From an uncultured Myxococcales bacterium (GTDB lineage Bacteria; Myxococcota; Kuafuiibacteriia; Kuafuiibacteriales; Kuafuiibacteriaceae), in the NCBI GenBank assembly GCA_964463485.1, contig CAYXDO010000014.1, positions 34,063 through 98,062 on the forward strand: a stretch of DNA of 64,000 nucleotides, given 5' to 3'. The stretch's first letter is position 1. The number at the start of each line of letters is the position of its first letter. The translations under genes were made by a program, and so were the position numbers. The notes beneath the pieces were generated by a model that did no database searches, was not told where the DNA came from, and saw only the letters and a list, made by a program, of their open reading frames with translations. Positions 3,003-23,554 of this stretch are shown here, in pieces.

Positions 3003-5191
3003 TGGCGCCCACGGTTCTCAAAGGACTGGAGCACCACGCGCTCTTTCTTCTGTTGGTCCAGATCTGTGTGCTCCTGGGGGTCGCTCGGGTTCTTGGGGAA
3101 GTGATGCGAGCGTTGAGGCAACCGCCCGTCGTCGGCGAGCTCTTGGCTGGCGTCCTCTTGGGGCCGACGACCTTTGGCCTGGCGTTTCCGGAGCTTCAGG
3201 CCGCGATCTTCCCGGCCGTTCAATCACAAGCGGACCTCTTGGCCGTCGTAGCTTGGCTCGGAGTGCTGTCCCTCTTGGTCGTCACCGGGCTCGAGACGGA
3301 CATACGACTCATCGTCCAAAAAGGAGGGACGGCGCTGCTGATTTCCGCCGGAGGAATCATCGTCCCGTTCGCCACGGGTCTGGCGCTCGGCTGGATGCTT
3401 CCGGAGGGACTCCTCACCAGCCCCGAGCGGAGGTCGGTGTTCGCGTTGTTCATGGCCGTCGCGATGAGTATTTCGGCAGTGCCGGTCATAGCCAAGGTGC
3501 TCTTCGACCTGAAGCTCGTGCGAAGGGACATCGGCCAACTCACCCTAGCCGCCGCGATGACGGACGACACGATCGGCTGGATCCTCCTTTCGGTGGTGGC
3601 CGGCTTGGCGTCGCGCGGATCCGTGGAGCTCAGTGGGGTGGCTGTTTCGGTGGGTGCAGCGGTCGTGTTCTTGGCCCTTGCGCTCACCGTCGGCGGGCCG
3701 ATCGTCGCAGGGGTGCTGACCATCGTCGACCGCCTCGGAACGGGCGTCGCCGGGCAGTTCTCCGTCGTGCTAGTGTTGGCCTTCGGGGCGGCCGCCTTCA
3801 CCCAAGAGATGGGTATCGAGGCCGTACTCGGAGCCTTCGTCGTCGGCATCTTGGTGGGTCAAGCCAAACGCTTCAAGGCGGAAGTCTCTCACACGCTCGA
3901 GCTCGTCACAGCTGGCTTTCTCGCGCCCATCTTCTTCGCGTCGGCGGGCCTGAAGGTGGATCTGGTGCGATTACTCGATCCAGAAATCATGGTGGTCGGA
4001 TCGATCGTGCTCTTCATTGCCTGTCTCGGGAAGATGGTTGGATGTTATCTCGGTGCCTGGGCGGGTGGCTTGTCCCACTGGGAGCGCCTGGCCCTGGGTT
4101 CTGGGATGAATGCTCGCGGGGCAATGGAAATCATCGTGGCCACCGTCGGACTCGGACTCGGTGTGCTCACAGCAGAGATGTACTCAGTGATCGTCATGGT
4201 CGCGATCGTCACTTCGCTCATGGCCCCGCCGCTCCTTCGATGGACATTGTCTCACATCGAGATGAGCGAGGAGGAGACGCAGCGGCTCGAACGCGAGAGT
4301 CTCGCGGCGACCAGCTTTGCTCGGTCGATCCGCCGTGTGTTGATCGTAGCGCGGGACGAAGAGCAGGCCGAGCTGATTTCGGGACTCATGACGCACCTGA
4401 AGAGCGCTCAGCCGGTAGAGCTCACCGCGATTTACGCCAACCTGGATCAAGGCCCAATGGCGTGGTGGAGTATTTTCGGCGCCGATTCGCGACGGGCGCG
4501 AAGGGAGTTTCGGCAGGCGCTGGGTGGGGTGCGACGGGCCGTTGCGCGAATCGATGGGGCGCCGTTCGAGATGAAGGTGGCGACGGGCCAGAACGCGGCT
4601 GACGAGGTGCTACGGGAGGCCGCCCGCGGGTATGATTTGGTGGCCATGGGGGTCACGGCCTCGGCTGGCAGCGACGAGTTCTTGTTTGGAAGCGTACTCG
4701 ACCGCGTCGTGCAGGAGGCGCCTTGTCCGGTGCTCGTCCTCAAAGCGGCAGTCGAGCCCCATCGCGAGCCCGTTCGACGCATACTCGTGCCGACCGCGGG
4801 TGCCGAGCACAACCGACCAGCGGTGGAGGCTGCGTCGCTGCTGGCGCAAGGCGCCCGCGCAAAGGTGACCCTGCTGCACGTGCTCACGAACACGGGTGAC
4901 GTCCTTGCTGGCGAAGCCATGGCGCCAAATCGAAGTCGGGAGATTGCAGAAGACATGATCGAACAGCAGGCGACGATCGTGCGCAAACTCGGAGCCGATG
5001 TGGCCGAGCGCATCGTAGAGGCTGGCTCACCGGAGACCGCGATTCTGGAGATCGCTCAACGAGAGTCTTTCGATCTGGTGATCCTCGGCGCCAGCGCGCG
5101 CAGCGTGCGAAGTCGGGCGTATCTTGGACCCCGTGCGGAGGCGCTCCTTCGCTCGGCCCCGTGCGCGGTTGCCATCGTGTGCAGCGGCTGA
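3002..5191 (+). CDS. CPA2-family cation/proton antiporter (Kef/NhaP-like) fused to two C-terminal universal-stress-protein (UspA) domains
   Basis: 12-13 TM helix N-terminal domain (GELLAGVLLGPTTFG... typical Na+/H+ exchanger). C-terminal soluble part has two Usp-like modules (RVLIVARDEEQ... and RILVPTAGAEHNRPAVEAASLLAQGARAKVTLLHV...VILGASARS). Translationally coupled to the upstream gene. Confidence 0.8.
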   Translation: MAPTVLKGLEHHALFLLLVQICVLLGVARVLGEVMRALRQPPVVGELLAGVLLGPTTFGLAFPELQAAIFPAVQSQADLLAVVAWLGVLSLLVVTGLETDIRLIVQKGGTALLISAGGIIVPFATGLALGWMLPEGLLTSPERRSVFALFMAVAMSISAVPVIAKVLFDLKLVRRDIGQLTLAAAMTDDTIGWILLSVVAGLASRGSVELSGVAVSVGAAVVFLALALTVGGPIVAGVLTIVDRLGTGVAGQFSVVLVLAFGAAAFTQEMGIEAVLGAFVVGILVGQAKRFKAEVSHTLELVTAGFLAPIFFASAGLKVDLVRLLDPEIMVVGSIVLFIACLGKMVGCYLGAWAGGLSHWERLALGSGMNARGAMEIIVATVGLGLGVLTAEMYSVIVMVAIVTSLMAPPLLRWTLSHIEMSEEETQRLERESLAATSFARSIRRVLIVARDEEQAELISGLMTHLKSAQPVELTAIYANLDQGPMAWWSIFGADSRRARREFRQALGGVRRAVARIDGAPFEMKVATGQNAADEVLREAARGYDLVAMGVTASAGSDEFLFGSVLDRVVQEAPCPVLVLKAAVEPHREPVRRILVPTAGAEHNRPAVEAASLLAQGARAKVTLLHVLTNTGDVLAGEAMAPNRSREIAEDMIEQQATIVRKLGADVAERIVEAGSPETAILEIAQRESFDLVILGASARSVRSRAYLGPRAEALLRSAPCAVAIVCSG

Positions 5192-5231
5192 CCCCCGCAA
5201 TCGAGGGCGCCTGCACTGGGTCGGTCGGCCT

Positions 5232-7283
5232 TCAGTCCACGGTGATCGATTTGCTCACGTTCTTCGGGACATCCGGATGTACGCCGTGCCCGCGCAACCC
5301 GAGGGCGTCGAGGTGACTCGCCTTCTTCGTGCTCATCTCGAGCGCGAGCAACTGCAACACGACCGTCGCAGAGAACATGGCCGAGAGAGTGTCTCCGGTC
5401 CGCGGGAGCTCGATGAATTGGGACACGTACCGCGGGTTGTCGGCCGGTGGCTTGGTGGCGGCCTGGCGTAACGCGGCGTCGTCCTCGGCGATGACGATGG
5501 TCTTGGCTCCTCTGATCTTGTGAGTGTTCATTTGGGACACCGTCAAGTCCACATCTCGGACGTTCGGGCCAGTCACGTAAATCAGAGGATAGTCTGCATC
5601 CAAAGTCTCGAGCAAATCAGCACGGCGAGACGGATCGAAGCCAGGGACCGAGGCGTCGAAGAGTCCGTGCAAATTCTCGACCGCACCAGCCTCGACCGCT
5701 CGCGTCACGGCCTCGAAGAGTGCGCGGACTTGGTCGATGCCGTACACCGTACTCTTCCCAAGAATCGTGTTGGGTCCGTGTTTGAACTCGGAGGCTTCGA
5801 AGCCCTCGGTGTGATTGAGCACGACCTCGCGGATCTTGAGCGCACCTTCCTTGGCGATCGCGGCCATCCGAGTGGCCAGGATGTGAAGGCTCGGCGCCAT
5901 GAACAGAGCCGCGGCGGCGCGCTCGATGGCGGGCTTGGTTTCGCGCAGCGTGGTCTCGATGAGCACAGGGAGCCCGGCGAAGCGACGCCTGCGCTCGGAT
6001 AGTCCCAGGGCGATCGCAGCGCGGGTAGCCGGATCGACCGAAGGGTCCTCCGCGCGTTTTTCGGCGACGCGGAGCGCGAGGCCGTAGAAGACGGCCATCT
6101 GATTCAGGAAGCTCTTGGTGGCCGGCACGGCGATCTCGGGGCCGCATCGGAGCGGGATCACGAGCTCACTCTGTTCCTGACCTAGCGTAGAGCTCACGTT
6201 GTTCACGATCCCGACGCGGGTCACTTTCTTCCCTGACGCGGCGACCAAGGTCATCACGTCGACGAGATCCTTGGTCTCTCCGCTCTGCGACACTGCGACG
6301 ACCAGGTCGCCGTCCGCGAGGGTGTCCGCGTACTGACCGCGAAACTCACCGGGGAGCACGGGAAAGATCGGCGCCCTCGCGAGCTCATCGAAGAACAGCG
6401 CGCCGGCCTTGGCCGCGTGAAAGGAGCTCCCGCAAGAGACGACGTAGACATGACGGCCGCTCTGAATCGCGTGGAGGACGAGGTCCGCGAAGGAGCTCGC
6501 GGCTCGTTCGACCTCGAGGAGCTCGTCTTTGGCGAGCACCGCGTCGAACAAGATCAGCGGGACGCGGTCACCGGCGAGGGGCTCGAGCTCCGAAAAGCTC
6601 GGCGCGTCCGTGGACGACAGGGACTCGAGGAGGGGCGCCGTTCGGAGCGCGGTCTTCGTCGCCTCGGGCAACCCATCGAGAATTCCGCGCACGGAGGGCG
6701 CTCCGACGAGCTCCGCGAGCGCCGCGCGAGCGCCCGCTTCGCCCTGCGCGTCGATGAGTGCGTCGACGCGAGGCCGCAGCTCGTCGAGCGTGCGCTCGTC
6801 GAGCGCCGCGGAGAACGTTCTCAGCGCGTCGGACCCGCCAGAGAACGAGGTCACGACGTCACGGACAGTCTTCACCTGCGCATGGATCTCTTGCTCCATG
6901 AAGGTGCGAAAGCCCGGCAACAAGACGGTGTCGCGCGCTCGCAACCTGCTCTTCTTGGGCGATTTCTCGACGCGACCGCCGGCCGCGACACTCCCCTTGG
7001 CTCTGACCGCGTACACTGCCCAAGCCGCGCCGTCGTGCTCGACGAAATCACCCTCCGAAATCGGAACGACCAAGCGAGTTAGTTTGAGCACCGACGACAG
7101 ATCGGAAGAAGCCAGCGTGAAGCTCCGACCTTGCTCATCCTTCCCGAAACCGAAATACAGCGAGGAGCCCAGCTTGATCGCCCAAGAGGCGCGAGAGACG
7201 GGATCGACCACGACCGCCGCGAAAGATCCCTTGAGCATCGCCGCCGCGTCCACGATCGCCGCACGCATCGCCGCGCGCCGATC
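5232..7283 (-). pseudogene. glmS 3'-fragment (aa ~152-835 of the intact copy at 21503-24010). Lacks the N-terminal Ntn-glutamine amidotransferase domain and catalytic Cys1. Read-through N-terminus (to 7445) is non-homologous junk.
   Basis: 100 % nucleotide identity over 2052 bp with 21503-23554 (constant ORF offset of 16271 for all six frames). Identity starts exactly at the stop codon and ends inside the GATase-coding region. Confidence 0.8.
5232..7283. repeat. Left copy of 2052-bp perfect direct repeat (DR-L)
   Basis: Boundaries mapped by hand: 5231 t vs 21502 c (differ), 5232=21503 onward identical, 7283=23554 last identical base, 7284 t vs 23555 c. Confidence 0.9.
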
Positions 7284-7290
7284 TCGCGCC

Positions 7291-7326
7291 TGTTCGAACA
7301 GTGCCGCGCTTGTTCGAACAGTGCCG
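7291..7326. repeat. 16-bp direct microduplication tgttcgaacagtgccg x2 (7291-7306, 7311-7326) immediately outside the DR-L boundary
   Basis: Read directly from the sequence. Absent from the corresponding position after DR-R. Confidence 0.8.
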
Positions 7327-7372
7327 GGCCCCTTGTTCACTTTTCGGGAACAGTCGCCGGGGCCCCTTTTTT
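7323..7372 (+). terminator. Intrinsic-terminator-like GC hairpin (GGGCCCC ... GGGGCCC) followed by TTTTTT
   Basis: 7-bp all-GC stem 7326-7332 / 7359-7365, loop with an internal ttgttc/gaacag pairing, then cTTTTTT 7366-7372. No obvious plus-strand gene ends here, so the role is unclear. Confidence 0.3.
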
Positions 7373-7650
7373 GACTCTTGGTGCGAACCCTTCTGCTTGG
7401 CAGCCAGTGCTTGCACCGAGGATTCGAAGAGCGGAGCCCAGCCACGATCTTGGCTTCGGAGAATCAGTCGACTCACCGTCGGCTCCTCGCCTCCCGTGGG
7501 CAGCGGAGGGAGAGCGTCGTTTCGGACCTTCCTCGTGGTGCAGAGCATAATTAATAAGTAGGAGCATCCCGGTCGAGATCGATCTCGGCGACCCGAGCTC
7601 GGCCCGACTCGATCTCACCAGTGCCCGAGCTCGATCTCAAGCCGACGATA

Positions 7651-7745: not shown

Positions 7746-9149
7746 ATGAACCCGGTCCCAATCGTTGCGTTGGTCGCCCTGATCCACGCTACCTCGCCCT
7801 CCCCCGCTACGTCCCCGCCTTTGATCGCTCGTCAGGAGTTTGACGGGAGTCGCCCGCTCGAAGCCAGAGCTCAGCTTGGTCCGAACCGAGGCCGCCTCGT
7901 GATCTCCGGCGGCCAGCTCGCACAAGTCCTCCCCGGACCCGGCATCCGCGAGCGCTTCTGCTTCGACGCGCTTCCCGGCGATCGGCACGCTGCCCTGCGG
8001 ATGAATCTCGCCAGCGGCGCCGCCGCGGAGTTGTTCATCCAATACGACGATCCGAGCTCTTTCGTCAGCGTCGTCGCTTTCGCGTCCGGCGCCGGTCGAA
8101 TCGTCACGCGCACCGCGGGCGGCGACACGATCGTCGCCAACTTCTCCACGGGCATCGTGCGGAACTTGTGGTCGCGAATGCGAGTCGAGGCCAGTCAGAT
8201 CGACCTCGGTAACTCCGAGATCCTGATCTCGATCGATGGCGCGCCGATCGCTTCCGCGGTGGTTCCGCGAGCGATTGAAGGGTCTGCGGTGTGTTATGGC
8301 GTGCGCGGACAAGCGCGCCTAGCGTGGACCGCGCTTTGGGGCTGTGCTGCGGGTGAGATGTTCACAGAAGCTTCGTGCCAGGCACGCGAAGCCAACAGGT
8401 GCGCCGACGGGGTGACCACGAGCTCCGAGGAGTGCGACGACGGCAACACCTCAGACGGTGACGGTTGCTCCGCTGTCTGCACGGCTGAGTTCTGCGGCGA
8501 CGCGCTCCTCTCCGGCGTCGAAGAGTGCGACGACGGCAACACCTCAGCCGGTGACGGTTGCTCCGCCGTCTGCACGATCGAGTCATGCGGTGACTCGATC
8601 CTCACGGGCACCGAAGAGTGCGACGACGGCAACACCGCAGGCGGTGACGGTTGCTCCTCCCTTTGCAGGATCGAGCCCACTGTCTTGTACTCTCAGCCCT
8701 TTGACGCTCCGAACTTCGTGGAAGGGATCGTGGGCTCGCAGGCGTTGTTCGACGGCGCTTCGTGGCTCGACATGGGCGGCGGATCGCAGCTCTACCACTC
8801 CAACTCGGGCCGACCGAGCTCAGGCTCCATGTCCGTTCGCAAGAGCTTCATCTCTTCGTGGTCCGGAGCCCTCGTCTACTCGATTCCGGCTCCGGCTCGG
8901 TCCGACGAAGTCCTTCGCGTTCGGTTCTGGATTTACAGCGCGCTCGGCTCGTTCGACCTCGGCGTGAACCGTGCCGGTGGTGCCACCGTCACTCGAACGA
9001 TTCCGATGGGCGGTTGGACGCTCGTCGACGCCCAGCTCTTGAGCAGCCTCGACACGAGTGAGGCCTACATTCTGTTGGGCGCCATGCCGCCTGACCCGTC
9101 TGGTTGGAGCGTGAAGGTCGACACGATCATCGTCGAGCTCACCCCGTAG
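7746..9149 (+). CDS. Secreted protein with three myxobacterial cysteine-rich repeats (TIGR02232-like: ECDDGNTxxGDGCSxxCxxExCGD)
   Basis: Three ~20-aa Cys-rich repeats (8390-8690 at DNA level, ~60-bp period). Hydrophobic N-terminus. RBS-like gaaggag upstream of the ATG. Confidence 0.7.
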   Translation: MNPVPIVALVALIHATSPSPATSPPLIARQEFDGSRPLEARAQLGPNRGRLVISGGQLAQVLPGPGIRERFCFDALPGDRHAALRMNLASGAAAELFIQYDDPSSFVSVVAFASGAGRIVTRTAGGDTIVANFSTGIVRNLWSRMRVEASQIDLGNSEILISIDGAPIASAVVPRAIEGSAVCYGVRGQARLAWTALWGCAAGEMFTEASCQAREANRCADGVTTSSEECDDGNTSDGDGCSAVCTAEFCGDALLSGVEECDDGNTSAGDGCSAVCTIESCGDSILTGTEECDDGNTAGGDGCSSLCRIEPTVLYSQPFDAPNFVEGIVGSQALFDGASWLDMGGGSQLYHSNSGRPSSGSMSVRKSFISSWSGALVYSIPAPARSDEVLRVRFWIYSALGSFDLGVNRAGGATVTRTIPMGGWTLVDAQLLSSLDTSEAYILLGAMPPDPSGWSVKVDTIIVELTP

Positions 9150-9653
9150 CCGCCAATCGTCGACACGTAGCCGTCGACGAATCATGCCTTCGGCCGCCCT
9201 GCCGCGGGACTACTCGCGGCGCTGCCAAGGGCTACCCGACTCCGACCTACCCACGTCGACCCCAATCGGGTTCGTTCTCGACGAGCCGACTTCAAACTCA
9301 TCCAGACGTTTGCGTCGAACGCGTTTGTACTCATCAACTCGCACGCCGCATTCTTGCCTCATGAATACTGCCCCCCGCCGCCAAGTCGTCCGAGCGTTAC
9401 ATCGATTGGGCTTCAACGCCACGAAAGGAAACGGAAGCGGCCACACTGTGTTCGTAGACCTCTGCGGTCGAAAAGTCCAAGCGGTCGTTCGCTCGAAGAA
9501 GACTCACCACGTCGAGGCCACGGCGCGGAGCCTGGAGCACTTCGGTGTCTGCACCAGGCGGGAGTTCTTCGAATTGGTGCGGCGATCGTGAAGAATTTGT
9601 CGATCGTGTGGGACTCACGCGGAGGCTCGGCGCACCTTGACTCCGCGCCAGCC

Positions 9654-11165
9654 ATGGCAGAGCCTGCGTCCATGACGGGTGCGGATCTGGCTTGGCAGTC
9701 CACCATGGAGCGAATTCGGGACGTCACGGCGACTCAGAGTCACGTCACCTTTTTCGGAGAGCCCGGAAGTGGCCGCAAATTCGCCGCGACAACCCTCTGC
9801 GCCGAAATTCGGACAACTGACTCGGGCGCCAGCTTTCGATTCCTCGAGTGCCGCGGCCTCGCGGTCCAGGCGGCAACGGAAGCGCTCGCGGCCGGTGGCG
9901 AGCTCGTCGTGCTCGTGTTGGCTCACGCCGACGAGCTGCGCGAAGAGCCCGCGAGCGTGATCCTGTCACGGCTGGGTACGCTCGAGCTGGAGCCGACGGC
10001 CCGGCCGAAACTTCGCGTTGTTGCGACGGTTTCGAAGCTTGATCAGGGCCCCCTCTCGACGCTCGAGACTGTCGAAGTTGCCACGCCGAGCCTGGCCCAG
10101 CGAGAGGATCAGAGCTTCGACACGATCCGCAAGTACTGGCAGCTTTTTGGCGGTCAGGGCTCGAGCCCCTCACTGGCAGAGCTCCGATCGGGCAACTTAC
10201 GCGAGCTGAAGGTTCGGGCACGTCGGAGCCAAGACGCACCGACTCAGAGTCAGGCCGCCCGATCCGAAGGGCTAGATTCGCATCCGGCTACTCCTGCCGA
10301 GCGCTCCGTCGATTTGGAAGTCGCGGCACCGCTACGGGCCCTCCTTACCGGACCTCCTCGAGGGCAGCTACTCACCGATTGGTTCCGCGAAGGCAACCAC
10401 TCGAAAACGCCAATCGGTGTCCTCAACGGTCTCTTTAGGAAAGGCCCAGGCAAAACGGATCATTCGCTGTTGAAGCAATGCGTCGCAGAACAGGCCAAGC
10501 TCATCATGGACCGAAACGGGGGCCTCGATCCGTCACGACCCCTGGACCGACACCTCTTGCTTGGGCAACTGTTCGACAACTGGCCGACGTTTCGTCCTGG
10601 TGCGGACGGAGACATACGTGTTGGTTTCCTCATCTCCGAGGCGAGAGAGAGAAGGGAGGCGCGCGAGCTTTTGGCGCAAATTCCGGAGCTGATGAACGTC
10701 TTTCCTGAGTTGGCCCAACTCTACGGCTTCGTACCAACCGAGGTCGATTCCACAGACTATGATGACCCCGCAAAACTCGCAAAACTGTTGAAGAAGAGCG
10801 TCGACGGACTCGAGAAGATCGGATATCACGTGCATCAGAAGCGCGGCGACGCGGAGTACCCGACCCTCGAACACGACGCACTGTCAGCAATCGGCACAAT
10901 GTTGTCCAAAGGTGGCAACCTAGGCGCCCACTCGAACCTGCTCACAGATCATGAGATGAAAAGCGTCAATTTCGAATCTACTGAAGCCGGCTATCATCTC
11001 GCATGCAGCGAAGGCGAGGGCAAGCCGTGCGTCTTCGTCGTCCGCGCCGACTCGCTACCGGTTGCGAAGAAGTCGATGTTCTGGGTGCCACTCATCGTTC
11101 TCGTTCGAAAGACGGCCTTGCGTCGTGGCTCTATACCGGCCATGGATCAACTCCGCTTGCCATGA
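9654..11165 (+). CDS. Degenerate sigma-54-activator-like AAA+ domain protein (pseudo-bEBP), gene A of the insert operon
   Basis: Residues after MAEPASM align with a bEBP AAA+ core. HVTFFGEPGSGRKF matches VLVTGESGTGKE but with K->R at the Walker A lysine position. LVVLVLAHADEL matches TLFLDEIGDMSL with DE->AH. The GAFTGA loop is absent. VEVATPSLAQREDQSF matches I.lPPLReRxeDI. Listed ORF begins at 9354, but the first ~100 codons look like leader, so 9654 ATG is chosen (uncertain). Stop overlaps gene B start (ATGA at 11162-11165). Confidence 0.6.
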   Translation: MAEPASMTGADLAWQSTMERIRDVTATQSHVTFFGEPGSGRKFAATTLCAEIRTTDSGASFRFLECRGLAVQAATEALAAGGELVVLVLAHADELREEPASVILSRLGTLELEPTARPKLRVVATVSKLDQGPLSTLETVEVATPSLAQREDQSFDTIRKYWQLFGGQGSSPSLAELRSGNLRELKVRARRSQDAPTQSQAARSEGLDSHPATPAERSVDLEVAAPLRALLTGPPRGQLLTDWFREGNHSKTPIGVLNGLFRKGPGKTDHSLLKQCVAEQAKLIMDRNGGLDPSRPLDRHLLLGQLFDNWPTFRPGADGDIRVGFLISEARERREARELLAQIPELMNVFPELAQLYGFVPTEVDSTDYDDPAKLAKLLKKSVDGLEKIGYHVHQKRGDAEYPTLEHDALSAIGTMLSKGGNLGAHSNLLTDHEMKSVNFESTEAGYHLACSEGEGKPCVFVVRADSLPVAKKSMFWVPLIVLVRKTALRRGSIPAMDQLRLP

Positions 11166-14100
11166 CCGAGTCTCTCGAGCGTCAAGGCCTCGGGGGCCGC
11201 TCCGCCGAGGCAAATTGGCTGACTCACAAGCTCGGTCGCGCTCCCATCGTTTGGGTGACTGGCCCACGCGGTATCGGAAAAACGACGATCGTGGAGCTCA
11301 CGCTCCAGGCAGCGACCGGTGCGCACTGGATCTTCCTGGACGCGCGACATTTCACCAGGGCAGACGCGAAGGTCGAGCGTGCCTCGCTCCTCGAGGCGCT
11401 CGCCACGGCTGTACTCACCGAGCTCGAACAGCAAGTACATCTTCCTCCGGCCGCCTGGGCCGCGGACGGTCGTTGGAGGGCCTTCGTCGATCACGCGCTT
11501 CCGTGCCTTGGCAGCGCGACCTGGGTCTTCGCTCTGGACGAGACGGATGTTTGGTCCTCAAACGTTCTCGTCGAGGTTACGGCCGCGCTGCGAGGCGTCG
11601 CCAATCGGCTCCGGTACCCGAGTCGAGCGATGACATGGATTCTGATTCGAGGGGATCGTTGGGGTGAGGATCGGGCGGATCTCCCGCGTATGGCGGATCC
11701 CGTGCTCGAGGTCGGGCCGCTCGACTCGAGCGCGATCGTCGCGGTCTGTGCGAAGCTTGCGGACCAGGGAAAGAATGCGTCTGCCGAGGCTCTCGCACTC
11801 ATCGAGCAACTCACAGCTGGCTATCCGCTCGCCTTGGCCGCACTCGTCGAAGCGCTGAAGACCGTTGAGCCAGATGAATCCGGACAGGAAATCTGGCCGT
11901 ACCCACCTTCGTCTCTCCAACCGTGGGGAGTATGGCGGGCGCTCGAGCGCCTCGAGGCGCAGGCGATGGGTCACGGTTCTGCGTTGTCGAGGGGCGAGAG
12001 CTTCGAACGGATGGAACACGCGCTGCTCCAGGCCGATCCTCCGGCGCGCAAAATGCTTTTGACCGTCGCGACCGTCGAGCAGCTCGAGTGGACGGAGATT
12101 TCGCTCTTGGAGGCGCTCGAACGAGCTTGGCCGGAAGAGCTATGGAACAATCCGGAAAGTGTCTCCCTCTTCGAGTCCACACTCCGAGGACTCGTACGGA
12201 CTCACATGCTGGTGCGCGTCGGCGTCGATGGCGCGCGCCACGTCGTGCCGATGCTCGCGAGATTTTGTCTCGCGCTCGGGACTGCCAAAATTCGGGCCTG
12301 GGAGAGACCGCACCTTCACGAGGTTGACCTCTTGCTCCAAGAGGTCAACACCGCGACGACTGACGAGACGAGGACGGAGTTGCTCCGACGGGCGCTGGAC
12401 GCCGACGATAGTGATCCCCGGGCCCTCCTCGCTCTCGCGAGGATTTGTGCACGTGGTTCGGAGTCGACTCAAGCCGAGTCGTTGGGTGAGGCGCGGCGAC
12501 TCTATTCGCGGGCACTGCGGGTGCTGCCCCAGCGAGCGTCCGAGCGGCGAGGTGTCGAGAGCGAGCTGCTGCACGTGCTCCAGCGGCTCGTCGCAGCGGG
12601 CGCTCCGGAGGATGCGATCGGAGAGTTGGCGAGAGGTGATCCGTATTTTGCGGACGACTCTCGAACGGCGAGAGCGCTGCATTTGTGGCTCGAGCGGCGC
12701 TGGTCCCAGGCGTGGGAGACTCCTCCGCCCAAGGAGATCGACCTCGCCTCATCGCGGCATCGATGGGAACAGCGAGCGGAGGGTCTCTTCGTTACTCTCC
12801 CTGGACATCGAGAGTTCGTCGCCAGAGCCCTTGGGTCGCACCTGGCCACTTGGCCCAGCCCGGATCTCGAGTGGCTGAACGCGCTGCTGGCGATCATGCC
12901 CGATCTTCCGGCTGTCGACCTCGATCGAGCGCCTTCTCCCGTGCTGTGGTCGATGCTCTATTCGGCGTGGAACACTCGAGACCGACTGTTCACGCCGGCT
13001 GCGCATGCACTTTCGTCCAAGGACTGGCTTGCGTTGGTCCGCTGGTGTCCGGGCTCGGGCCCGGCCATCTCGGTGCTGACCCAGTATCTCGCCGAAACTG
13101 TCTCCGCACTGGGAGGGGCCGACGCCCTCGAATTCGGGCCGCTCCTTCTGTGGCTTAGGGAGCGCGACAAACCAATGGGCGACGCGGCCGTTTCCCATGT
13201 GCTCCGCTCGCTCAAGCGCCCTGCCGTCGGGCCTGTGAGTCGAGACGCGGTCCGGGCGTGGCGCGAGCTCGCTCCAGACCTCGAGCTGACCTCCCACGAT
13301 ACCGCCGATCAATTCAAGAAGACCTTCATCTCCGGTTGGCGCCAAATCAGCGAACCCGAGAAGCTGGACGGCGTGGAACATCGGTTGATCGAGCGCGACT
13401 CCGGACCCGAGCCACGTCCGCGAGCCCTCCATCGACTGTTTCCCTCTCAACAAGGGCTTGAGCTCGACTTGGCCGAGGCTTCGTTTGCACGTGAGCAGCG
13501 CCTGCTTGAATGGCTTGGCGACTCGCGAGTGAACGCGGTTCCTCGCCTCCTCGATACCGGCTCGTTGGTCGACGACTCTAACAACAAACTCGGCTTCTAC
13601 TCGGTCGTGTCCGAGCCTGCATCGGAGCGCGAGGCGACCTCGCTGCGCACGCTCATCCGAAGACAAACCTCGAACGGCCGCAGTGTGGCCAGCCTCAGCC
13701 GAAGCTCCTTCTGGCACATGATCGCCTCGCTCTTCGAGGCTTTGAGCCACATGCACCAGAGGGCCGTGTTTCATCGATCCGCGCGGCCCGACTACGTCCG
13801 TGTGAGTCTTCCCGAAGATCCGAAGCGCGAGCCCTGGCGGGTGACCTTGATCGGCATGGAATGGAGCTATTACCTCCGGAACCCAACGGGTATGGGTGCC
13901 TATCCGCGTCGACGCCTGGACTACTCGCTCGCCCCAGAGACTCTTTCAGCTCCGTACGGCGAGACTTTCGGCACCGACCTCTTTTCGATGGGCGTACTCA
14001 TCGCTGAATGCCTCGCGTCCGATCGGCTCGACCTCGGCCCGTTCGCTGAAGGTGAGTACAGCCGCGCAACCCAGATCAGGCACATAGAAGCTTGGCTGAG

Positions 14101-16867
14101 CAAGCTCGAGCACGAATCGAGCTCGGTCCGCGCCTTCGTGCGCTGGCTCCTGTCCATCGAGCCAAAGGACCGCCCCAGCGCCGCCGTCGCCCGCCTCGAG
14201 GCCCAACGCCAAGCCCTCGACCCCAAAGAGCTCGGAGCCTTACCGATTTTCGCGCACCTCGGAGGCTCAGATCCCCTGGCGAGCAGCGCGACGCTTCCTC
14301 ACTGGCTGCGCGACCGTGCCGAGTGGATCGACCAGATCCCCTTCGACGAGCCCAACACCTGGCGGAGACTCTTCCGCAGACAACTCTGCCAGGAGCTTGC
14401 AGGCGCCTCCATTTTTGTGAACTCGATCGGCCTCGCCCAGCGAGCTCTCGATGGTCCCGAGGCCCCCGAAAAATGGCCCTTGTTTCTGATGAGCAAGAGC
14501 GGCCTGGAATTCCGGCTGGGAAAGGCGTCCCTCGAGCTCGAAGGCGAGCCCCGCAGGCAGAGAGAGTCGGGGGCGTTTCTCGAGGTCGCGCGCCGATTTG
14601 AGGGCGACTCTCCCTTTGGTCCTCCCATCGGACAGCTCCCAGAAGCCGGTGACATCCGGTTTTTCGCGATAGACGAGGTCGACTCGCTCCAAGGAGTCGA
14701 CAGTGAGTCGTATGAGATTCTCCGAAGCCGTGATCGTGGCTGGGCGCCGCTGTTCGAGTCCGCCGAGCAAGCACTGAAGGCCGAGCAGACCGAGACTTCG
14801 ATCGTGCAGAGGCGACTGGCCCTCCATGCCATGCTCAACCTCGCCAACGAAGCCGAGTACGAGCTCGTCGGAGGAGAAATCGAATACGTTCGAGTAGAGG
14901 ACCCTGCTTTCCCGAACATGCTCCTCGTTCGTGAGCCATCGGCGGCAAGTGCGTCCGCCTCGAGCGCGCCCAGCCCCCTCCAGCGTATTTTCGCCGCTTG
15001 GACCGATGTGGATCCCGTGGTGGAGGTGGCCTCCAAACAGGGCGCGCGAGCCATCACCGAGATTCCTTTTCCCGACCCATCCCTCGCCATCGGACCCAAT
15101 GGCACCGTGGCCCTCGCTGGCATGAAGTTCGGCCTGAGTCCGGCACGGTGGAGCCTGATACCGCCTATGGGCGTGCTGCGAAGCCCGGTCGCCGAGTTGG
15201 CGCTGAGCTTGTTTCGCCGACGCCGTCGGGTCCTACGAGAGCTGCTCGACCAGCCGAACGTCCTCGATGCGTTGGCCGATCCCACAAACTCGTCCCGCGT
15301 GGTGCCTGGCTTGCGAAAACCGTTCGAGTATCCAGGTCTCGACGACGACAAGAAAGCCTGTCTGCGGCAAATGGACGAAGTCCGGCCCCTGCTGGCCGTA
15401 CGCGGGCCTCCCGGTACCGGCAAGACTCAGCTAAGCCTGGCCACTCTCCATCGCGAGCTGAATCGAAATCCCCACGCCCGAATCGCTGTGGTCGCGCCTA
15501 CTCACGACGCTCTCGATCACTTGCTCGAGAGCTTTCTGGCCTCCTCGGATCGGGGACCGGCTTTCGAGAGGCGAGTTTTGTCCGCGACCGTCGTCCGGAT
15601 TCCTTCTGGCAAGCGTCCTCTCGACCAATATCCTGCGACCGTCAAAACCAAGTTACCCTCGGTGCAGGCGGAGGAGCTTTACCGCAGGCTGCGAGGCTGG
15701 ATCGACGGATCTCGAGCTCGACCTCACTCACCCGCCGGGCAACTCGCCTCCGCGGTCGAGGCGGAGTTGAAGCTCCTCGGCGGCACCAGCGAAGATCCGA
15801 CCAGCGGGCTGGCCGCCTGGTTGGCTGACTCGGCGAACGTCCTGTTGGCGACGGCCAACTCCGGTCCCATTGCGCGAGTTGCGCCTGACAGCTTCGACCT
15901 CTTGATCGCAGAGGAGTCCGGAAAATGTGGAGCCGTCGAGCTCGCCGGAGCCATGCGTGTCGCGCCGAGGTGGCTCATGATCGGTGACGAGCGCCAACTC
16001 CCGGCCTTTGGCCTTCAAGACGTCGAGGACAAAGTCTTCGACTCGATCAACGCGGCGTCGGAGGCAGGGTCGAGCCAGATACCTTCTCCGGTCGATACGT
16101 TGAACCTGTTCGGTCACGTCATTGCGCAGGAGGGGCCCCACACGCAAACGCTCACACACGCTTGGCGATTCCATCCAAAGCTCCTTGCCGTCGTCGCTTC
16201 GTTCTATGATGACAAAGCGACACTCATCCCCGGCGACGTCGACCTAGCCAGGAGGAAGACTCATGAGCTCCGTGCTTCTCGTCTTGGCAAGAATCTGAAG
16301 GATAATCTGAAGGATAAGCAGCTCGTCTGGGTCGATTTCGAAAACAGTGAGGCCTATCGGGAGCGCCGGGAGCTGGGCGGGGGAATTCACAATGAAGCCG
16401 AACGCCGAGCGATCGTAGGCTTCCTACGTGCCCTGGACGCACGGTGCGCCCAGCCTCGACTCACGGTGTTATCGTTCTACAAGCGACAGGTCGAGCACCT
16501 TCGAGGATTGCTCGCAAACCAGGTGAATACCTTCGATGTCTTTGGAAAGCGCGGGATTGAAGACTTCGTGTCGACGGTCGACTCCTTTCAGGGTCGCCAA
16601 GCCCCGGTCGTCTTGCTGAGTATGTGCCGCAACAACACCGAAACCGAGGCCTCACGACGTTTTGGGTTCCTGACGGACCGACGACGCGGAAACGTGGCCT
16701 TCTCGAGGGCGGAGAGTCTTCTCGTGATCTTCGGATGCCGCGCCCATTTCGCGGAGCTGAAGTGGGTCAAAGACCAAGTTCTGAGTCGGGTCCAGCTCTT
16801 CCTCAAGGCCTCGGATATCTTGAGTGATTCCGAGACATCCAAGCTCATGGAGAGCGTCGGGCCGTGA
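11162..16867 (+). CDS. Giant (1901 aa) multidomain protein: N-terminal STAND/AAA-type P-loop NTPase + helical/TPR-like region + degenerate Ser/Thr protein-kinase-like domain (pseudokinase) + C-terminal Upf1-like SF1 helicase (COG1112-type). Gene B.
   Basis: Walker A VWVTGPRGIGKTTIVEL and Walker B WVFALDETDVW. Kinase-like segment HMHQRAVFHRSARPDYVRV (HRD->HRS), TLIGMEWS (DFG->LIG), YSLAPETL (APE), DLFSMGVLIAECL, EPKDRPS, with no VAIK Lys. Helicase motifs LAVRGPPGTGKTQ (I), VLLATANSG, FDLLIAEESGKCG (II-like), WLMIGDERQLPAF (III), VDSFQGRQAPVVLLS (V), NVAFSRAESLLVIFG (VI). Start chosen at ATG 11162 overlapping the gene A stop (listed ORF starts upstream at 11003 inside gene A). Confidence 0.85.
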   Translation: MTESLERQGLGGRSAEANWLTHKLGRAPIVWVTGPRGIGKTTIVELTLQAATGAHWIFLDARHFTRADAKVERASLLEALATAVLTELEQQVHLPPAAWAADGRWRAFVDHALPCLGSATWVFALDETDVWSSNVLVEVTAALRGVANRLRYPSRAMTWILIRGDRWGEDRADLPRMADPVLEVGPLDSSAIVAVCAKLADQGKNASAEALALIEQLTAGYPLALAALVEALKTVEPDESGQEIWPYPPSSLQPWGVWRALERLEAQAMGHGSALSRGESFERMEHALLQADPPARKMLLTVATVEQLEWTEISLLEALERAWPEELWNNPESVSLFESTLRGLVRTHMLVRVGVDGARHVVPMLARFCLALGTAKIRAWERPHLHEVDLLLQEVNTATTDETRTELLRRALDADDSDPRALLALARICARGSESTQAESLGEARRLYSRALRVLPQRASERRGVESELLHVLQRLVAAGAPEDAIGELARGDPYFADDSRTARALHLWLERRWSQAWETPPPKEIDLASSRHRWEQRAEGLFVTLPGHREFVARALGSHLATWPSPDLEWLNALLAIMPDLPAVDLDRAPSPVLWSMLYSAWNTRDRLFTPAAHALSSKDWLALVRWCPGSGPAISVLTQYLAETVSALGGADALEFGPLLLWLRERDKPMGDAAVSHVLRSLKRPAVGPVSRDAVRAWRELAPDLELTSHDTADQFKKTFISGWRQISEPEKLDGVEHRLIERDSGPEPRPRALHRLFPSQQGLELDLAEASFAREQRLLEWLGDSRVNAVPRLLDTGSLVDDSNNKLGFYSVVSEPASEREATSLRTLIRRQTSNGRSVASLSRSSFWHMIASLFEALSHMHQRAVFHRSARPDYVRVSLPEDPKREPWRVTLIGMEWSYYLRNPTGMGAYPRRRLDYSLAPETLSAPYGETFGTDLFSMGVLIAECLASDRLDLGPFAEGEYSRATQIRHIEAWLSKLEHESSSVRAFVRWLLSIEPKDRPSAAVARLEAQRQALDPKELGALPIFAHLGGSDPLASSATLPHWLRDRAEWIDQIPFDEPNTWRRLFRRQLCQELAGASIFVNSIGLAQRALDGPEAPEKWPLFLMSKSGLEFRLGKASLELEGEPRRQRESGAFLEVARRFEGDSPFGPPIGQLPEAGDIRFFAIDEVDSLQGVDSESYEILRSRDRGWAPLFESAEQALKAEQTETSIVQRRLALHAMLNLANEAEYELVGGEIEYVRVEDPAFPNMLLVREPSAASASASSAPSPLQRIFAAWTDVDPVVEVASKQGARAITEIPFPDPSLAIGPNGTVALAGMKFGLSPARWSLIPPMGVLRSPVAELALSLFRRRRRVLRELLDQPNVLDALADPTNSSRVVPGLRKPFEYPGLDDDKKACLRQMDEVRPLLAVRGPPGTGKTQLSLATLHRELNRNPHARIAVVAPTHDALDHLLESFLASSDRGPAFERRVLSATVVRIPSGKRPLDQYPATVKTKLPSVQAEELYRRLRGWIDGSRARPHSPAGQLASAVEAELKLLGGTSEDPTSGLAAWLADSANVLLATANSGPIARVAPDSFDLLIAEESGKCGAVELAGAMRVAPRWLMIGDERQLPAFGLQDVEDKVFDSINAASEAGSSQIPSPVDTLNLFGHVIAQEGPHTQTLTHAWRFHPKLLAVVASFYDDKATLIPGDVDLARRKTHELRASRLGKNLKDNLKDKQLVWVDFENSEAYRERRELGGGIHNEAERRAIVGFLRALDARCAQPRLTVLSFYKRQVEHLRGLLANQVNTFDVFGKRGIEDFVSTVDSFQGRQAPVVLLSMCRNNTETEASRRFGFLTDRRRGNVAFSRAESLLVIFGCRAHFAELKWVKDQVLSRVQLFLKASDILSDSETSKLMESVGP

Positions 16868-18987
16868 CCGAGGAGCGCTCCGAGGACGGTCGACGAACGC
16901 TCTACGCTCGGGGCAGAGTCTATCGTCTGACCCTGTCGGGGCGCGTCCAGGAATCATGGCTGGAACGCGCGATCCTGGCGGCCTGCGCGCAAACCAAACT
17001 CACTCTGTCGGACCTGCTGTCCGCCGCGCGTCTCGACCACCGGGCCCCGAAGAGAGTCCCGCTACCCGAGGGTCTGTTCGTCGACGCCGTGGCGAAGCTG
17101 TTGGAGCGAGGACGACTGTCCGTGAAGCCTTCCGACGGAAGCCTCTGCGTAGGCGGTACGCCGTCCCCGGAGCTCGACGCTGCGAACTCTGTCGACGTCG
17201 AGGTCTGGCGAGACGACGCCACGGGTACCATCTGGCCGCTCGACTCGGTTGGGGCTCCGAGGGTCCGCACGGCGGCATCCAGGGACCAAATCCGAAGGAG
17301 CGGACCGGTGCTCGGCGTCGATCTTATGAGGGCCTCGAGCGCCCGAATCATCGAAGAGCTCCGGCTTCGAATGCCCGGCGCAGTACCCGACGTCGCGTCG
17401 GAGGTACTCGGGCGCCAAATGGCCCAGCAGTTTGAGTTTCTCAAGATCGAGGCCGTCGAACGCGAGGACGGCCGCTTGGCCGTGACCTCGCTCGTTCCGT
17501 GGCGCTTGCGCGCCGCCTGGGCCCGAGTTTCCCTGCCCGGAATCGAGCTTGCCCCACGAGATTCGATCCGCGTCGAAGCGACCCCGGAGCCCCCTAGCTG
17601 GAATCGCTCCTTCGATCGGTGGGTCGCGGCGATCGATAGCAACGAGGAAACCGGTCCCGCTCAGAGCGAGCTGCTGAGTCTTTTGGATCGTCGCCTATAT
17701 CCCCGACTCGTGCGGTCCACCGACATATTCGAGAGTGTACCCTCGACGCGCCACCAGACTTACATGGGAGCCGGCCCGAACTCTGCCGGGCACCTCCGTG
17801 CGCTCATGAAGGAGGTCCCCGCTGGGCTAGCCATCAAAGTGGACTCGACGGAGGCCTTTGTCGCTGTCGATTCCCACACCCTTTTTCTCGGGGGCTCCTT
17901 CAATCCCCAGCACAAAGGAAGCCATAGCTTCAAAGTCATGGGCTGGGTCGCCGTCACCGCCTTTCTGCGGGCCGCAATCGGCGAAGAAGTCGCTATCTCT
18001 TCCGAGCCCGACTCACCGACCGTCTCGCGCCTCCGTAACGCGATCGACGGCGCGGCTCGCTCGATGGACCCCGAGCTCGCGCGCCGTGTACCCATCGAGG
18101 TCGACGTCGGCCACCCGGTCATTTGGCTGAGCACCGACGACGCCGAGTTTCTCGCGGCCTCCATCGAGTGGACGATCATTGCCCTCTCTCCCAAGCTCGA
18201 CCGCCCCCCCGCGTGGATTCGAAATGCCTCCGGCGAGCCTACCGTCGGCCTCTACTGCACCACCCCAACCGAGCCGACGAGCCCACCAGACGTGTGGATC
18301 TCGAACACTGGCGGCTGGGTCTTGGTGGGCTACTGGTCGATCGGATATTTCGGCTGCAGGCAATCGGCCGAGCTCGGCTCCACTCTTCGAGACATGATCG
18401 GTGACTGGGAGCTTCAGGCTCTGGAGACGGATGCGCCAACCGTCGCTCCCAGCCCTCCAAACCACAATCCGTCCCCACTGTCGAAACCTGTCCCGCCGAT
18501 CGGAGCTCCGAAGCCGACGCCGACAAACGAACCCAATCCACCGAATGCGCCCTCTCCCCTGCAATCGGACGTGACGAGTTCGAAGGCACCAGTGGCCAAG
18601 GCACCCGGGGCTCCTTCAGTCGCACCTGGACCTGAAAATATTGTCAGATCGATACTCGCTCAGCTCGGCCAGACGCCCGTCGAAGGGGACTGGCAGCTCG
18701 AGTACGATAGACTCTTCAAAGCCATAGGCAAGCTCGACTTCGTCTCGAAGAACGACCGTGGCGCAAAGCTCTTGGTCGCCCTGCTCGCTGCTCGAGTCAA
18801 CGCGCTCCAAGAAGGTTGGCCAAAGCCCTTGCCCAACCTCATCAAAGCCCTGATCGGGTTCACGAAGAAGACTCAAATTGGACTCATCCATGGACTCAGC
18901 AGGCAACACACGAGTCAATCATGGCTCGAGGAAGCCCACAGCGCTGAGCAGGCGCTGGTCGAGCTCTTCGAGCCCAAGGGGCCTTAG
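16864..18987 (+). CDS. Hypothetical 707-aa protein, gene C of the operon. Globular N-terminal ~480 aa, Pro-rich linker (PSPPNHNPSPLSKPVPPIGAPKPTPTNEPNPPNAPSP), C-terminal ~110-aa helical domain.
   Basis: GTG start at 16864 overlapping the gene B stop (GTGA). Good coding GC3. No recognisable catalytic motif; HxKx4D PLD, PD-(D/E)xK and HNH were looked for and not found. Confidence 0.7.
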   Translation: MTEERSEDGRRTLYARGRVYRLTLSGRVQESWLERAILAACAQTKLTLSDLLSAARLDHRAPKRVPLPEGLFVDAVAKLLERGRLSVKPSDGSLCVGGTPSPELDAANSVDVEVWRDDATGTIWPLDSVGAPRVRTAASRDQIRRSGPVLGVDLMRASSARIIEELRLRMPGAVPDVASEVLGRQMAQQFEFLKIEAVEREDGRLAVTSLVPWRLRAAWARVSLPGIELAPRDSIRVEATPEPPSWNRSFDRWVAAIDSNEETGPAQSELLSLLDRRLYPRLVRSTDIFESVPSTRHQTYMGAGPNSAGHLRALMKEVPAGLAIKVDSTEAFVAVDSHTLFLGGSFNPQHKGSHSFKVMGWVAVTAFLRAAIGEEVAISSEPDSPTVSRLRNAIDGAARSMDPELARRVPIEVDVGHPVIWLSTDDAEFLAASIEWTIIALSPKLDRPPAWIRNASGEPTVGLYCTTPTEPTSPPDVWISNTGGWVLVGYWSIGYFGCRQSAELGSTLRDMIGDWELQALETDAPTVAPSPPNHNPSPLSKPVPPIGAPKPTPTNEPNPPNAPSPLQSDVTSSKAPVAKAPGAPSVAPGPENIVRSILAQLGQTPVEGDWQLEYDRLFKAIGKLDFVSKNDRGAKLLVALLAARVNALQEGWPKPLPNLIKALIGFTKKTQIGLIHGLSRQHTSQSWLEEAHSAEQALVELFEPKGP

Positions 18988-21502: not shown

Positions 21503-23554
21503 TCAGTCCACGGTGATCGATTTGCTCACGTTCTTCGGGACATCCGGATGTACGCCGTGCCCGCGCAACCCGAGGGCGTCGAGGTGACTCGCCTTCTTCG
21601 TGCTCATCTCGAGCGCGAGCAACTGCAACACGACCGTCGCAGAGAACATGGCCGAGAGAGTGTCTCCGGTCCGCGGGAGCTCGATGAATTGGGACACGTA
21701 CCGCGGGTTGTCGGCCGGTGGCTTGGTGGCGGCCTGGCGTAACGCGGCGTCGTCCTCGGCGATGACGATGGTCTTGGCTCCTCTGATCTTGTGAGTGTTC
21801 ATTTGGGACACCGTCAAGTCCACATCTCGGACGTTCGGGCCAGTCACGTAAATCAGAGGATAGTCTGCATCCAAAGTCTCGAGCAAATCAGCACGGCGAG
21901 ACGGATCGAAGCCAGGGACCGAGGCGTCGAAGAGTCCGTGCAAATTCTCGACCGCACCAGCCTCGACCGCTCGCGTCACGGCCTCGAAGAGTGCGCGGAC
22001 TTGGTCGATGCCGTACACCGTACTCTTCCCAAGAATCGTGTTGGGTCCGTGTTTGAACTCGGAGGCTTCGAAGCCCTCGGTGTGATTGAGCACGACCTCG
22101 CGGATCTTGAGCGCACCTTCCTTGGCGATCGCGGCCATCCGAGTGGCCAGGATGTGAAGGCTCGGCGCCATGAACAGAGCCGCGGCGGCGCGCTCGATGG
22201 CGGGCTTGGTTTCGCGCAGCGTGGTCTCGATGAGCACAGGGAGCCCGGCGAAGCGACGCCTGCGCTCGGATAGTCCCAGGGCGATCGCAGCGCGGGTAGC
22301 CGGATCGACCGAAGGGTCCTCCGCGCGTTTTTCGGCGACGCGGAGCGCGAGGCCGTAGAAGACGGCCATCTGATTCAGGAAGCTCTTGGTGGCCGGCACG
22401 GCGATCTCGGGGCCGCATCGGAGCGGGATCACGAGCTCACTCTGTTCCTGACCTAGCGTAGAGCTCACGTTGTTCACGATCCCGACGCGGGTCACTTTCT
22501 TCCCTGACGCGGCGACCAAGGTCATCACGTCGACGAGATCCTTGGTCTCTCCGCTCTGCGACACTGCGACGACCAGGTCGCCGTCCGCGAGGGTGTCCGC
22601 GTACTGACCGCGAAACTCACCGGGGAGCACGGGAAAGATCGGCGCCCTCGCGAGCTCATCGAAGAACAGCGCGCCGGCCTTGGCCGCGTGAAAGGAGCTC
22701 CCGCAAGAGACGACGTAGACATGACGGCCGCTCTGAATCGCGTGGAGGACGAGGTCCGCGAAGGAGCTCGCGGCTCGTTCGACCTCGAGGAGCTCGTCTT
22801 TGGCGAGCACCGCGTCGAACAAGATCAGCGGGACGCGGTCACCGGCGAGGGGCTCGAGCTCCGAAAAGCTCGGCGCGTCCGTGGACGACAGGGACTCGAG
22901 GAGGGGCGCCGTTCGGAGCGCGGTCTTCGTCGCCTCGGGCAACCCATCGAGAATTCCGCGCACGGAGGGCGCTCCGACGAGCTCCGCGAGCGCCGCGCGA
23001 GCGCCCGCTTCGCCCTGCGCGTCGATGAGTGCGTCGACGCGAGGCCGCAGCTCGTCGAGCGTGCGCTCGTCGAGCGCCGCGGAGAACGTTCTCAGCGCGT
23101 CGGACCCGCCAGAGAACGAGGTCACGACGTCACGGACAGTCTTCACCTGCGCATGGATCTCTTGCTCCATGAAGGTGCGAAAGCCCGGCAACAAGACGGT
23201 GTCGCGCGCTCGCAACCTGCTCTTCTTGGGCGATTTCTCGACGCGACCGCCGGCCGCGACACTCCCCTTGGCTCTGACCGCGTACACTGCCCAAGCCGCG
23301 CCGTCGTGCTCGACGAAATCACCCTCCGAAATCGGAACGACCAAGCGAGTTAGTTTGAGCACCGACGACAGATCGGAAGAAGCCAGCGTGAAGCTCCGAC
23401 CTTGCTCATCCTTCCCGAAACCGAAATACAGCGAGGAGCCCAGCTTGATCGCCCAAGAGGCGCGAGAGACGGGATCGACCACGACCGCCGCGAAAGATCC
23501 CTTGAGCATCGCCGCCGCGTCCACGATCGCCGCACGCATCGCCGCGCGCCGATC
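21503..23554. repeat. Right copy of 2052-bp perfect direct repeat (DR-R), part of intact glmS
   Basis: See DR-L. Offset 16271 bp. Confidence 0.9.

Follow-up and report, generated by a model that had tools for sequence, protein, structure and literature searches.

Two described groups of proteins are among the closest known counterparts of the locus reported here. Atypical bacterial enhancer-binding proteins (bEBPs), among them VpsR, NtrX, TyrR, HupR, HsfA and PhhR, have lost the GAFTGA motif, in some cases carry non-consensus Walker A and Walker B motifs, and do not act on sigma-54 (PMC6158489). Type I Mokosh consists of MkoA (STK plus RNA helicase) and MkoB (a PLD nuclease) (Millman et al., bioRxiv 10.1101/2022.05.11.491447). 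Our literature search turned up no mechanistic study of Mokosh, a widespread system whose mechanism is largely unknown. Here we describe gene A, the first of three overlapping genes (A, B and C) in a 64,000-nucleotide stretch, hereafter the window, of a metagenome-assembled genome (MAG) contig from an uncultured Myxococcales bacterium (GCA_964463485.1, contig CAYXDO010000014.1, positions 34,063 to 98,062 of the forward strand). Judged by its sequence, A is a two-part protein, with an eroded bEBP-type AAA+ module (residues 1-190) followed by an orphan domain (residues 191-503), and it is a coupled cistron of a STAND-extended type I Mokosh-like operon. Proteins of two sister loci, L001 and L003, are marked by one and two primes, respectively (A' and A'', and so on).

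Like the atypical bEBPs, A has a bEBP-type AAA+ core without GAFTGA. However, the atypical proteins are DNA-binding transcription factors with a helix-turn-helix (HTH) and usually a receiver or sensor domain, and A has neither. The erosion also goes further, in that the L1 and L2 insertions are deleted and both Arg fingers are lost, and, unlike the atypical bEBPs, A has a 310-residue orphan C-terminal region and is a coupled cistron in a defence-type operon. The likeness to type I Mokosh lies in the other two genes: B contains the full-length MkoA module, C'' (a member of the C family) matches MkoB, and the mkoA/mkoB overlap seen on plasmids resembles the A/B and B/C overlaps. The canonical plasmid system has only two genes, with an MkoA of ~1,190 residues and no coupled upstream gene, whereas the MkoA of B has an N-terminal extension of ~750 residues (STAND P-loop plus TPR-like), the MkoB-like C lacks the HKD motif, and A is an extra coupled gene upstream. 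RtcR/PspF-type CARF-AAA-HTH regulators likewise place a bEBP-type AAA+ module in a defence or stress context. These regulators activate through sigma-54, have an HTH and keep their motifs intact; A' matches them, whereas A has no PADLOC match to them. STAND-NTPase immune sensors (Avs/AVAST-like, nSTAND) share with the N-terminus of B the order AAA_16/nSTAND6 and then a TPR-like region, and they are usually single-polypeptide sensor-effector proteins, unlike the multi-gene operon found here. We know of no bEBP-derived partner subunit described for such sensors.

Standard searches detect the bEBP character of A only faintly. The Pfam model Sigma54_activat (PF00158) scored 12.9 bits against the full protein (E=0.092) and 14.9 bits against residues 1-200 (E=0.022), with only residues 9-66 aligned and a Pfam gathering cut-off of 20.2 bits. 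Thus, a check against this profile, proposed in an earlier note on this DNA, gave no significant match. Sigma54_activ_2 (PF14532) reached E=0.059, and the best weak NCBIfam matches were the bEBP models PgtA and NtrX, so that bEBP models (PF00158, PF14532, PgtA and NtrX) make up all the top weak matches from both of these independent libraries; the Hda and IstB models of NCBIfam stand at similarly weak E-values. BLASTP of A against the true NtrC of the window (32390-33865; PF00158 8e-74) gave E=0.2, with a top segment that pairs TPSLAQRED...GNLRELK of A with TPPLRERGQD...GNVREMR of NtrC. A phmmer search of the PDB returned no bEBP and only spurious fluorescent-protein matches.

Much clearer signals came from a custom profile built from 120 bEBP AAA+ domains, a by-product of the protein search with A'. 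This hidden Markov model scored A at 12.4 bits (E=3.8e-6, for one planned target). Residues 1-200 scored 15.7, which none of 2000 shuffles reached (maximum 8.5), and shuffles in which the P-loop octamer was held fixed rose to 13.0 at most, never to the real score. Taken piece by piece, residues 1-72 (19.8 bits) and the lid, residues 126-200 (8.9 bits), were each matched by none of 3000 shuffles. Residues 73-130, which span Walker B and sensor I, scored 0.4 bits and were equalled or beaten by 586 of 3000. With hhalign, residues 5-191 were placed on profile columns 6-234 (179 columns, P=2.5e-5) at a score of 39.0, compared with 14.0±2.6 and a maximum of 22.4 for 200 shuffles. When all 426 six-frame open reading frames (ORFs) of the window were ranked by the custom profile, A came second at 11.7 bits, behind the true NtrC (356 bits) and ahead of the next at 3.6. 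Gene B, which has two genuine P-loops, scored just 3.6 bits on the same profile.

The strongest support comes from a sister locus. Only three loci of this kind (the window, L001 and L003) are present in the collections that we searched; the word-indexed and pattern searches are limited in sensitivity, and more relatives may exist. The word-index search of the protein index returned one homologue of B (P0007, 31% identity), on contig L001 (Logan SRR28842990). This contig encodes the same three genes in the same order, with an 11-nt overlap between its first gene, A', and the B homologue. A' lacks its N-terminal part, lost at the contig end, and begins REDLYYRLNEVTISVPPLRSRPEDL...FPGNVRELK, a canonical bEBP Arg-finger/lid region (REDLYYRLN...PPLRSRPED...FPGNVRELK; AAA_lid_14 E=2e-18), and its bEBP part is 50-58% identical to ordinary NtrC-family proteins. 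Beyond the lid, family scans identified no known domain and no HTH in the remaining ~400 residues.

A further question is whether the bEBP likeness of A is accidental or generic to P-loops, the module being an unrelated or differently derived NTPase-like domain. Such an origin would sit comfortably with the sub-threshold Pfam and NCBIfam matches, the BLASTP result against the local NtrC, the PDB search without a bEBP, the unalignable middle third and the equally weak Hda and IstB matches. It accounts poorly for two collinear segments that each beat every shuffle, for a score that survives fixing of the P-loop and that the P-loops of B do not approach, for a lid with the bEBP hallmarks PxLxxRxED and GNxRELK, and for a positional equivalent, A', that is an unmistakable bEBP. 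We consider this explanation very unlikely. We conclude from the sequence comparisons that the N-terminal third of A is a genuine, strongly diverged bEBP-type AAA+ module, the catalytic core of which is the most eroded part. This homology, as the earlier note had proposed it, rests on custom statistics and synteny, and by standard criteria it is marginal. The alignment with NtrC, described in that note as clear from Walker A to the lid, holds at the Walker A end and in the lid and fails over Walker B and the sensor.

The states of individual motifs were read from a MAFFT alignment of 64 bEBPs, along with hhalign. The Walker A reading GEPGSGRKF (residues 35-43), with Arg in place of the P-loop Lys, is borne out: Arg41 stands in a column with Lys in 62 of 63 aligned bEBPs, and Lys42 occupies a column that has Glu in 60. 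The loop is missing at the GAFTGA site, as the earlier note reported; the residues placed there by hhalign and MAFFT are QAATEA (F replaced by A, G by E), from either side of which 13 and 9 bEBP residues are deleted (consensus segments xLLESELFGHEKG and xxxRxGxFE). Further deletions remove VGGxxxxx before sensor I (the L2 insertion), a stretch of 10 residues that leads up to the Arg finger, and 11 residues of the lid. Ser127 occupies the sensor I Asn/His column. The two Arg-finger columns, Arg in 64 of 64 bEBPs, are Asp130 and Thr136 in A, a loss that the earlier note had not mentioned. Its assignment of Ala-His to the Walker B Asp-Glu holds in the ungapped alignment only (A90-H91), whereas both hhalign and MAFFT insert six residues and so bring D93-E94 onto the invariant DE. 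The lid is better preserved, with the invariant bEBP columns P145, L147, R150, G180, N181 and R183 kept (the G, N and R of GNxRELK are invariant in 64 of 64 bEBPs); other retained residues are G35, G38, G40 and G82. Of the elements that define the fold, the helix ahead of Walker A and the beta-strand behind it also survive. Because L1 and L2 are deleted and the P-loop Lys, the sensor I Asn and the Arg fingers are lost, we predict that A cannot act on sigma-54 as a remodeller; ATP hydrolysis in a ring is very unlikely as well, although nucleotide binding may persist.

A single-sequence AlphaFold2 (AF2) model of A was unusable (pLDDT 38). A model made with the bEBP alignment supplied had a mean pLDDT of 72.6 (~58 across residues 61-120), with a strand at residues 87-90 and a helix at 92-95 near Walker B (pLDDT ~58). 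The best PDB matches of this model in Foldseek were PspF, FlrC, NtrC1, NtrX and VpsR.

The reading frame of A is open from 9354 to the TGA at 11163-11165, and GC by codon position follows the coding-type pattern (GC1>GC2<GC3) intact over 503 codons. Two other starts have been annotated, ATG 9672 (NCBI; 497 residues, P0001) and GTG 9588 (Logan; 525 residues, P0002). The Walker A codons lie downstream of all three candidate starts, and thus the bEBP-aligned region is translated, as the earlier note supposed. GC at third codon positions (GC3) is 0.73 in the N-terminal part of A, 0.65 in its C-terminal part, 0.72 in B and 0.74 in C, all below the housekeeping NtrC gene of the window (0.80). The GC3 profile shows the frame of A as coding only from about 9590; over ~9375-9600 a small HicA-like ORF occupies the coding frame. 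The TGA of this ORF overlaps GTG 9588 in the frame of A (GTGA), and A may start there as part of a four-cistron operon in which the HicA-like ORF comes first. No HicB-like partner was noticed near it.

The stop codon of A overlaps the ATG of B (ATGA, 11162-11165). Thus, the coupling to a STAND/helicase giant described in the earlier note stands, and we can now identify the giant as an MkoA extended by STAND and TPR regions. The N-terminus of B matches AAA_16 (2.2e-11) and nSTAND6 (1.1e-7), followed by the TPR-like region. Residues 752-1880 form the MkoA module (PADLOC PDLC03920, 1.4e-125, profile positions 32-1090 of 1112), composed of a kinase-like domain and an Upf1-like superfamily 1 helicase (Pfam Pkinase, AAA_11 and AAA_12). 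The STAND and helicase motifs are intact, including the helicase Walker A, GPPGTGKT. Gene C begins with a GTG that overlaps the B stop (GTGA) and encodes a Pro-rich linker (residues ~520-590) and an extra C-terminal domain of ~110 residues. It has no family match of its own in PADLOC or Pfam, and its predicted tie to MkoB runs only through C' and C''. The motif HxK(x)4D was not identified in C, C' or C'', whereas two plasmid MkoB proteins have two copies each.

This arrangement bears on the possibility that A is a transcription factor in the manner of VpsR, NtrX and TyrR, controlling the Mokosh-like operon or other genes through sigma-70 RNA polymerase and binding DNA with its C-terminal part. 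Proteins without GAFTGA and with non-consensus Walker motifs are established in this role, and HsfA is from a myxobacterium (PMC6158489). NtrX and VpsR are also among the nearest fold matches of the alignment-driven model, and bEBP-type regulators (the RtcR/PspF CARF_AAA_HTH models) are already included in PADLOC, where A' matches them at 5e-23 over the lid. Yet family scans identified no HTH_8 or other DNA-binding family in A, A' or A'' (for residues 201-503 of A, even at E<=10) and A has neither a receiver nor a sensor domain ahead of its AAA+ module. Genes whose stop overlaps the start of a structural gene more typically encode complex subunits than regulators. To our knowledge, the Arg fingers and the P-loop Lys are much better preserved in the known atypical EBPs than in A. 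A sigma-54 promoter was not identified near the operon (no match to TGGCAC-N5-TTGCW within two mismatches in 8253-12011), nor was a sigma-70-like site in 8900-11300. We regard a transcription factor as unlikely.

The second sister locus, L003 (JGI Ga0068859, about 53% GC), was found by a metagenome scan and has the same three genes. B'' matches MkoA at 3e-162 and C'' matches MkoB at 3.4e-8, and the A'' stop is overlapped by a TTG start (TTGA) with a perfect AGGAGG upstream of it. The three-gene order and the stop/start overlap are thus kept in both relatives. B shares 31% and 25% identity with B' and B'', respectively, and the third genes (L001 7572-9329; L003 13413-15575) encode related proteins (C-C' 4e-11, C'-C'' 4e-6, C-C'' 0.01). 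A'' (408 residues; 5925-7151, + strand) has no family match. The three first-gene products are mutually unalignable outside the bEBP lid motif, and by these comparisons a bEBP module occupies the first-gene position in two of the three known loci. By eye, the N-terminus of A'' resembles an OmpR-type winged helix (...LRAVVSDLNRVFKKL...IQNQRGTGYTL), with a degenerate P-loop-like stretch after it (LPGNGAEL ... IVVENW); neither has profile support. The flanking genes of L003 encode an NYN nuclease with Effector-associated domain 7 (3840-5705, - strand) and a CHAT-protease/STAND NTPase (16162-18459, + strand), which marks a conflict-system neighbourhood.

Further searches added no relatives. A tblastn search of plasmids with B and a scan of viral contigs gave only generic helicase-domain matches or canonical two-gene Mokosh, and a scan of genome contigs with the B/B' alignment pattern gave no match. 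The DNA pattern for EVARRxEGDxPxGPP was not matched in metagenomes. Its sole match in genome contigs (L002; JBFMHF010000166.1, a Myxococcota MAG) lies out of frame in an ordinary Ser/Thr kinase and was rejected. For A, neither the word-index search nor an exhaustive phmmer search over 1.84 billion representatives returned any homologue besides A itself; two candidates, P0005 and P0006, are repeat proteins with scores inflated by multiple weak stretches and were rejected.

The isolation of A invites the explanation that it is a decaying relic, a former bEBP-type partner that is drifting to loss and has no present function. All tested catalytic residues except sensor II are gone, GC3 of the C-terminal part falls under that of B and C, no homologue was found among the representatives searched, and the first gene of L003 is of a different kind; with the HKD motifs also lost in C, the whole system could be degenerating. 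However, the 503-codon frame is intact with a coding-type GC pattern, the ATGA overlap with B is exactly preserved, and the STAND and helicase motifs of B are intact. The losses are not those of uniform decay, as the P-loop glycines, the lid motifs and sensor II are selectively retained. We think it quite unlikely that A is such a relic.

In our preferred reading, which we hold with about even confidence, A is most likely a non-hydrolysing adaptor or regulator of B. Translational coupling would supply A in fixed proportion with B, to which it would bind as a non-catalytic adaptor or regulatory subunit, with the AAA+ remnant as its docking module, either nucleotide-dependent or purely structural. 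The role of the C-terminal domain, which evolves fast, would be to detect the trigger or else to keep the STAND/helicase machine inactive until the cell is infected; the rapid divergence of A fits a component exposed to an arms race. Several points weigh against this reading. The link between A and B is drawn from coupling and synteny, both of which are indirect. The PF00158 match is below the gathering score, the segment of Walker B and sensor I performs no better than many shuffles, and the match of the AF2 model in Foldseek is circular, as the bEBP alignment was supplied, and serves for illustration only. D93-E94 could be a functional Walker B, in which case A, with Arg41/Lys42, might be a weak ATPase. 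The truncation of A' leaves its Walker and GAFTGA part outside the contig. A'' has no bEBP similarity, and therefore the bEBP module appears not to be essential to the system family. Conservation statistics are thin with three loci.

A broader and rather doubtful proposal is that the locus encodes a three-component immune system descended from type I Mokosh. Its PLD nuclease would have lost activity, its helicase would have gained a STAND/TPR switch by fusion, and a newly recruited, rapidly diversifying first gene would provide the input or output that is missing. If this were true, A would be the first sigma-54-activator ATPase taken up as a subunit of an anti-phage machine and not as a transcription factor, and its orphan C-terminal domain would be a trigger receptor or a new effector. 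Between the C-terminal regions of A, A' and A'', no homology was detected by BLASTP, phmmer, hhalign or MAFFT, and their sole common element is a tiny motif, [DE][NDV]W[PG]x[FY]. In A it falls in LFDNWPTF, ~45 residues past a stretch, FRKGPGKT (residues ~263-269, 10440-10460), that looks like a second Walker A (GPGKT, residues ~263-267) without profile support; the weak counterparts of LFDNWPTF are EVDWPAY in A' and VENWGSF in A'', with no statistical support.

Mokosh is already known, and so are bEBP homologues with eroded GAFTGA and Walker motifs. What is new is the combination, a bEBP-derived module without a DNA-binding domain, coupled in a three-gene, STAND-fused Mokosh offshoot without HKD motifs. 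The unusual repurposing claimed in the earlier note thus lies in the defence-operon context and the lack of a DNA-binding domain, and not in the erosion itself, which atypical EBPs share (PMC6158489). If A does belong to the STAND-MkoA machine as a subunit, bEBP AAA+ modules can be co-opted for roles other than transcription. Proteins with this module are otherwise treated as dedicated sigma-54 remodellers or, if atypical, as transcription factors that use sigma-70. The locus would, in addition, be the defining example of a STAND-gated Mokosh offshoot with three genes, and, as the canonical nuclease active site is missing there, one has to ask what its effector might be. These findings are of modest practical value: members of the family are extremely rare, with three loci in the searched collections, and everything about them has been deduced from sequence. 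Coordinates of the features are collected below.

Table 1. Features of the A-B-C locus and its surroundings, in window coordinates.
Feature	Position	Strand	Basis or remark
Left copy of perfect 2,052-bp direct repeat	5232..7283	.	Sequence comparison
HicA-like ORF, 76 residues	9361..9591	+	GC3 supports; Pfam HicA_toxin E=0.009 and PHROG 'toxin' E=0.055, both sub-threshold
Gene A, 503 residues from ATG 9654	9654..11165	+	Codon-position GC support
Diverged bEBP-type AAA+ module of A, residues 1-190 (alpha/beta subdomain and lid)	9654..10223	+	Profile, hhalign and shuffle tests
Degenerate Walker A GEPGSGRK, residues 35-42	9756..9779	+	64-bEBP alignment
QAATEA, residues 72-77, remnant of GAFTGA L1 loop	9867..9884	+	hhalign, MAFFT
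Walker B region LVVLVLAHADEL, residues 84-95	9903..9938	+	Register ambiguous: A90-H91 or D93-E94 on DE
LDQGPLSTL, residues 129-137, on FREDLYYRL	10038..10064	+	Both Arg fingers replaced
Lid hallmarks PSLAQRED (residues 145-152) and GNLRELK (residues 180-186)	10086..10211	+	Sensor II Arg183 kept
A residues 191-503: low-complexity linker, then orphan C-terminal region	10224..11162	+	No relative or family detected
Gene B, 1901 residues: STAND P-loop, TPR-like region and MkoA module	11162..16867	+	Pfam, PADLOC
Gene C, 707 residues: MkoB relative without HKD motifs	16864..18987	+	Links via C' and C''
Right copy of 2,052-bp direct repeat	21503..23554	.	Inside intact GlmS-like gene 21503-24010 (-)

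The catalytic Asp of the HRD motif is absent from the kinase-like domain of B (HRS, residues ~865-878, ~13750-13790), as it is from B' and B'' (HRA), and two canonical plasmid MkoA proteins (L038 5174-8746 and L039 5222-8767) have HRN. In place of DFG, the MkoA kinase-like domains have GxEWS. The Mokosh 'STK' domain thus looks like a pseudokinase in all five sequences compared. In the C family, inspection by eye shows that C'' keeps HALVIDD..GGNW at the second HKD site, and that C and C' have Asp at the His position.

The operon lies between the two direct repeats, each of which matches a GlmS-like GATase+SIS gene in its 3' part; the left copy belongs to a 5'-truncated version of this gene (5232-7445, - strand). 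The bracketed segment of 14.2 kb contains a DUF4215 gene, the HicA-like ORF and A-B-C, and neither an integrase nor a tRNA was present there. It could have arisen by single-crossover insertion or duplication, or it could be an artefact of MAG assembly. Within it, ~1.5 kb downstream of C (18988-20095 and 21098-21502) is without a convincing gene, on either side of a 333-residue ORF (20096-21097) that has no family and a signal-peptide-like N-terminus. The 467-residue gene at 7746-9149 contains three tandem 93-nt repeats (8400-8678; 75-100% identical) that encode Cys-rich DUF4215 repeats.

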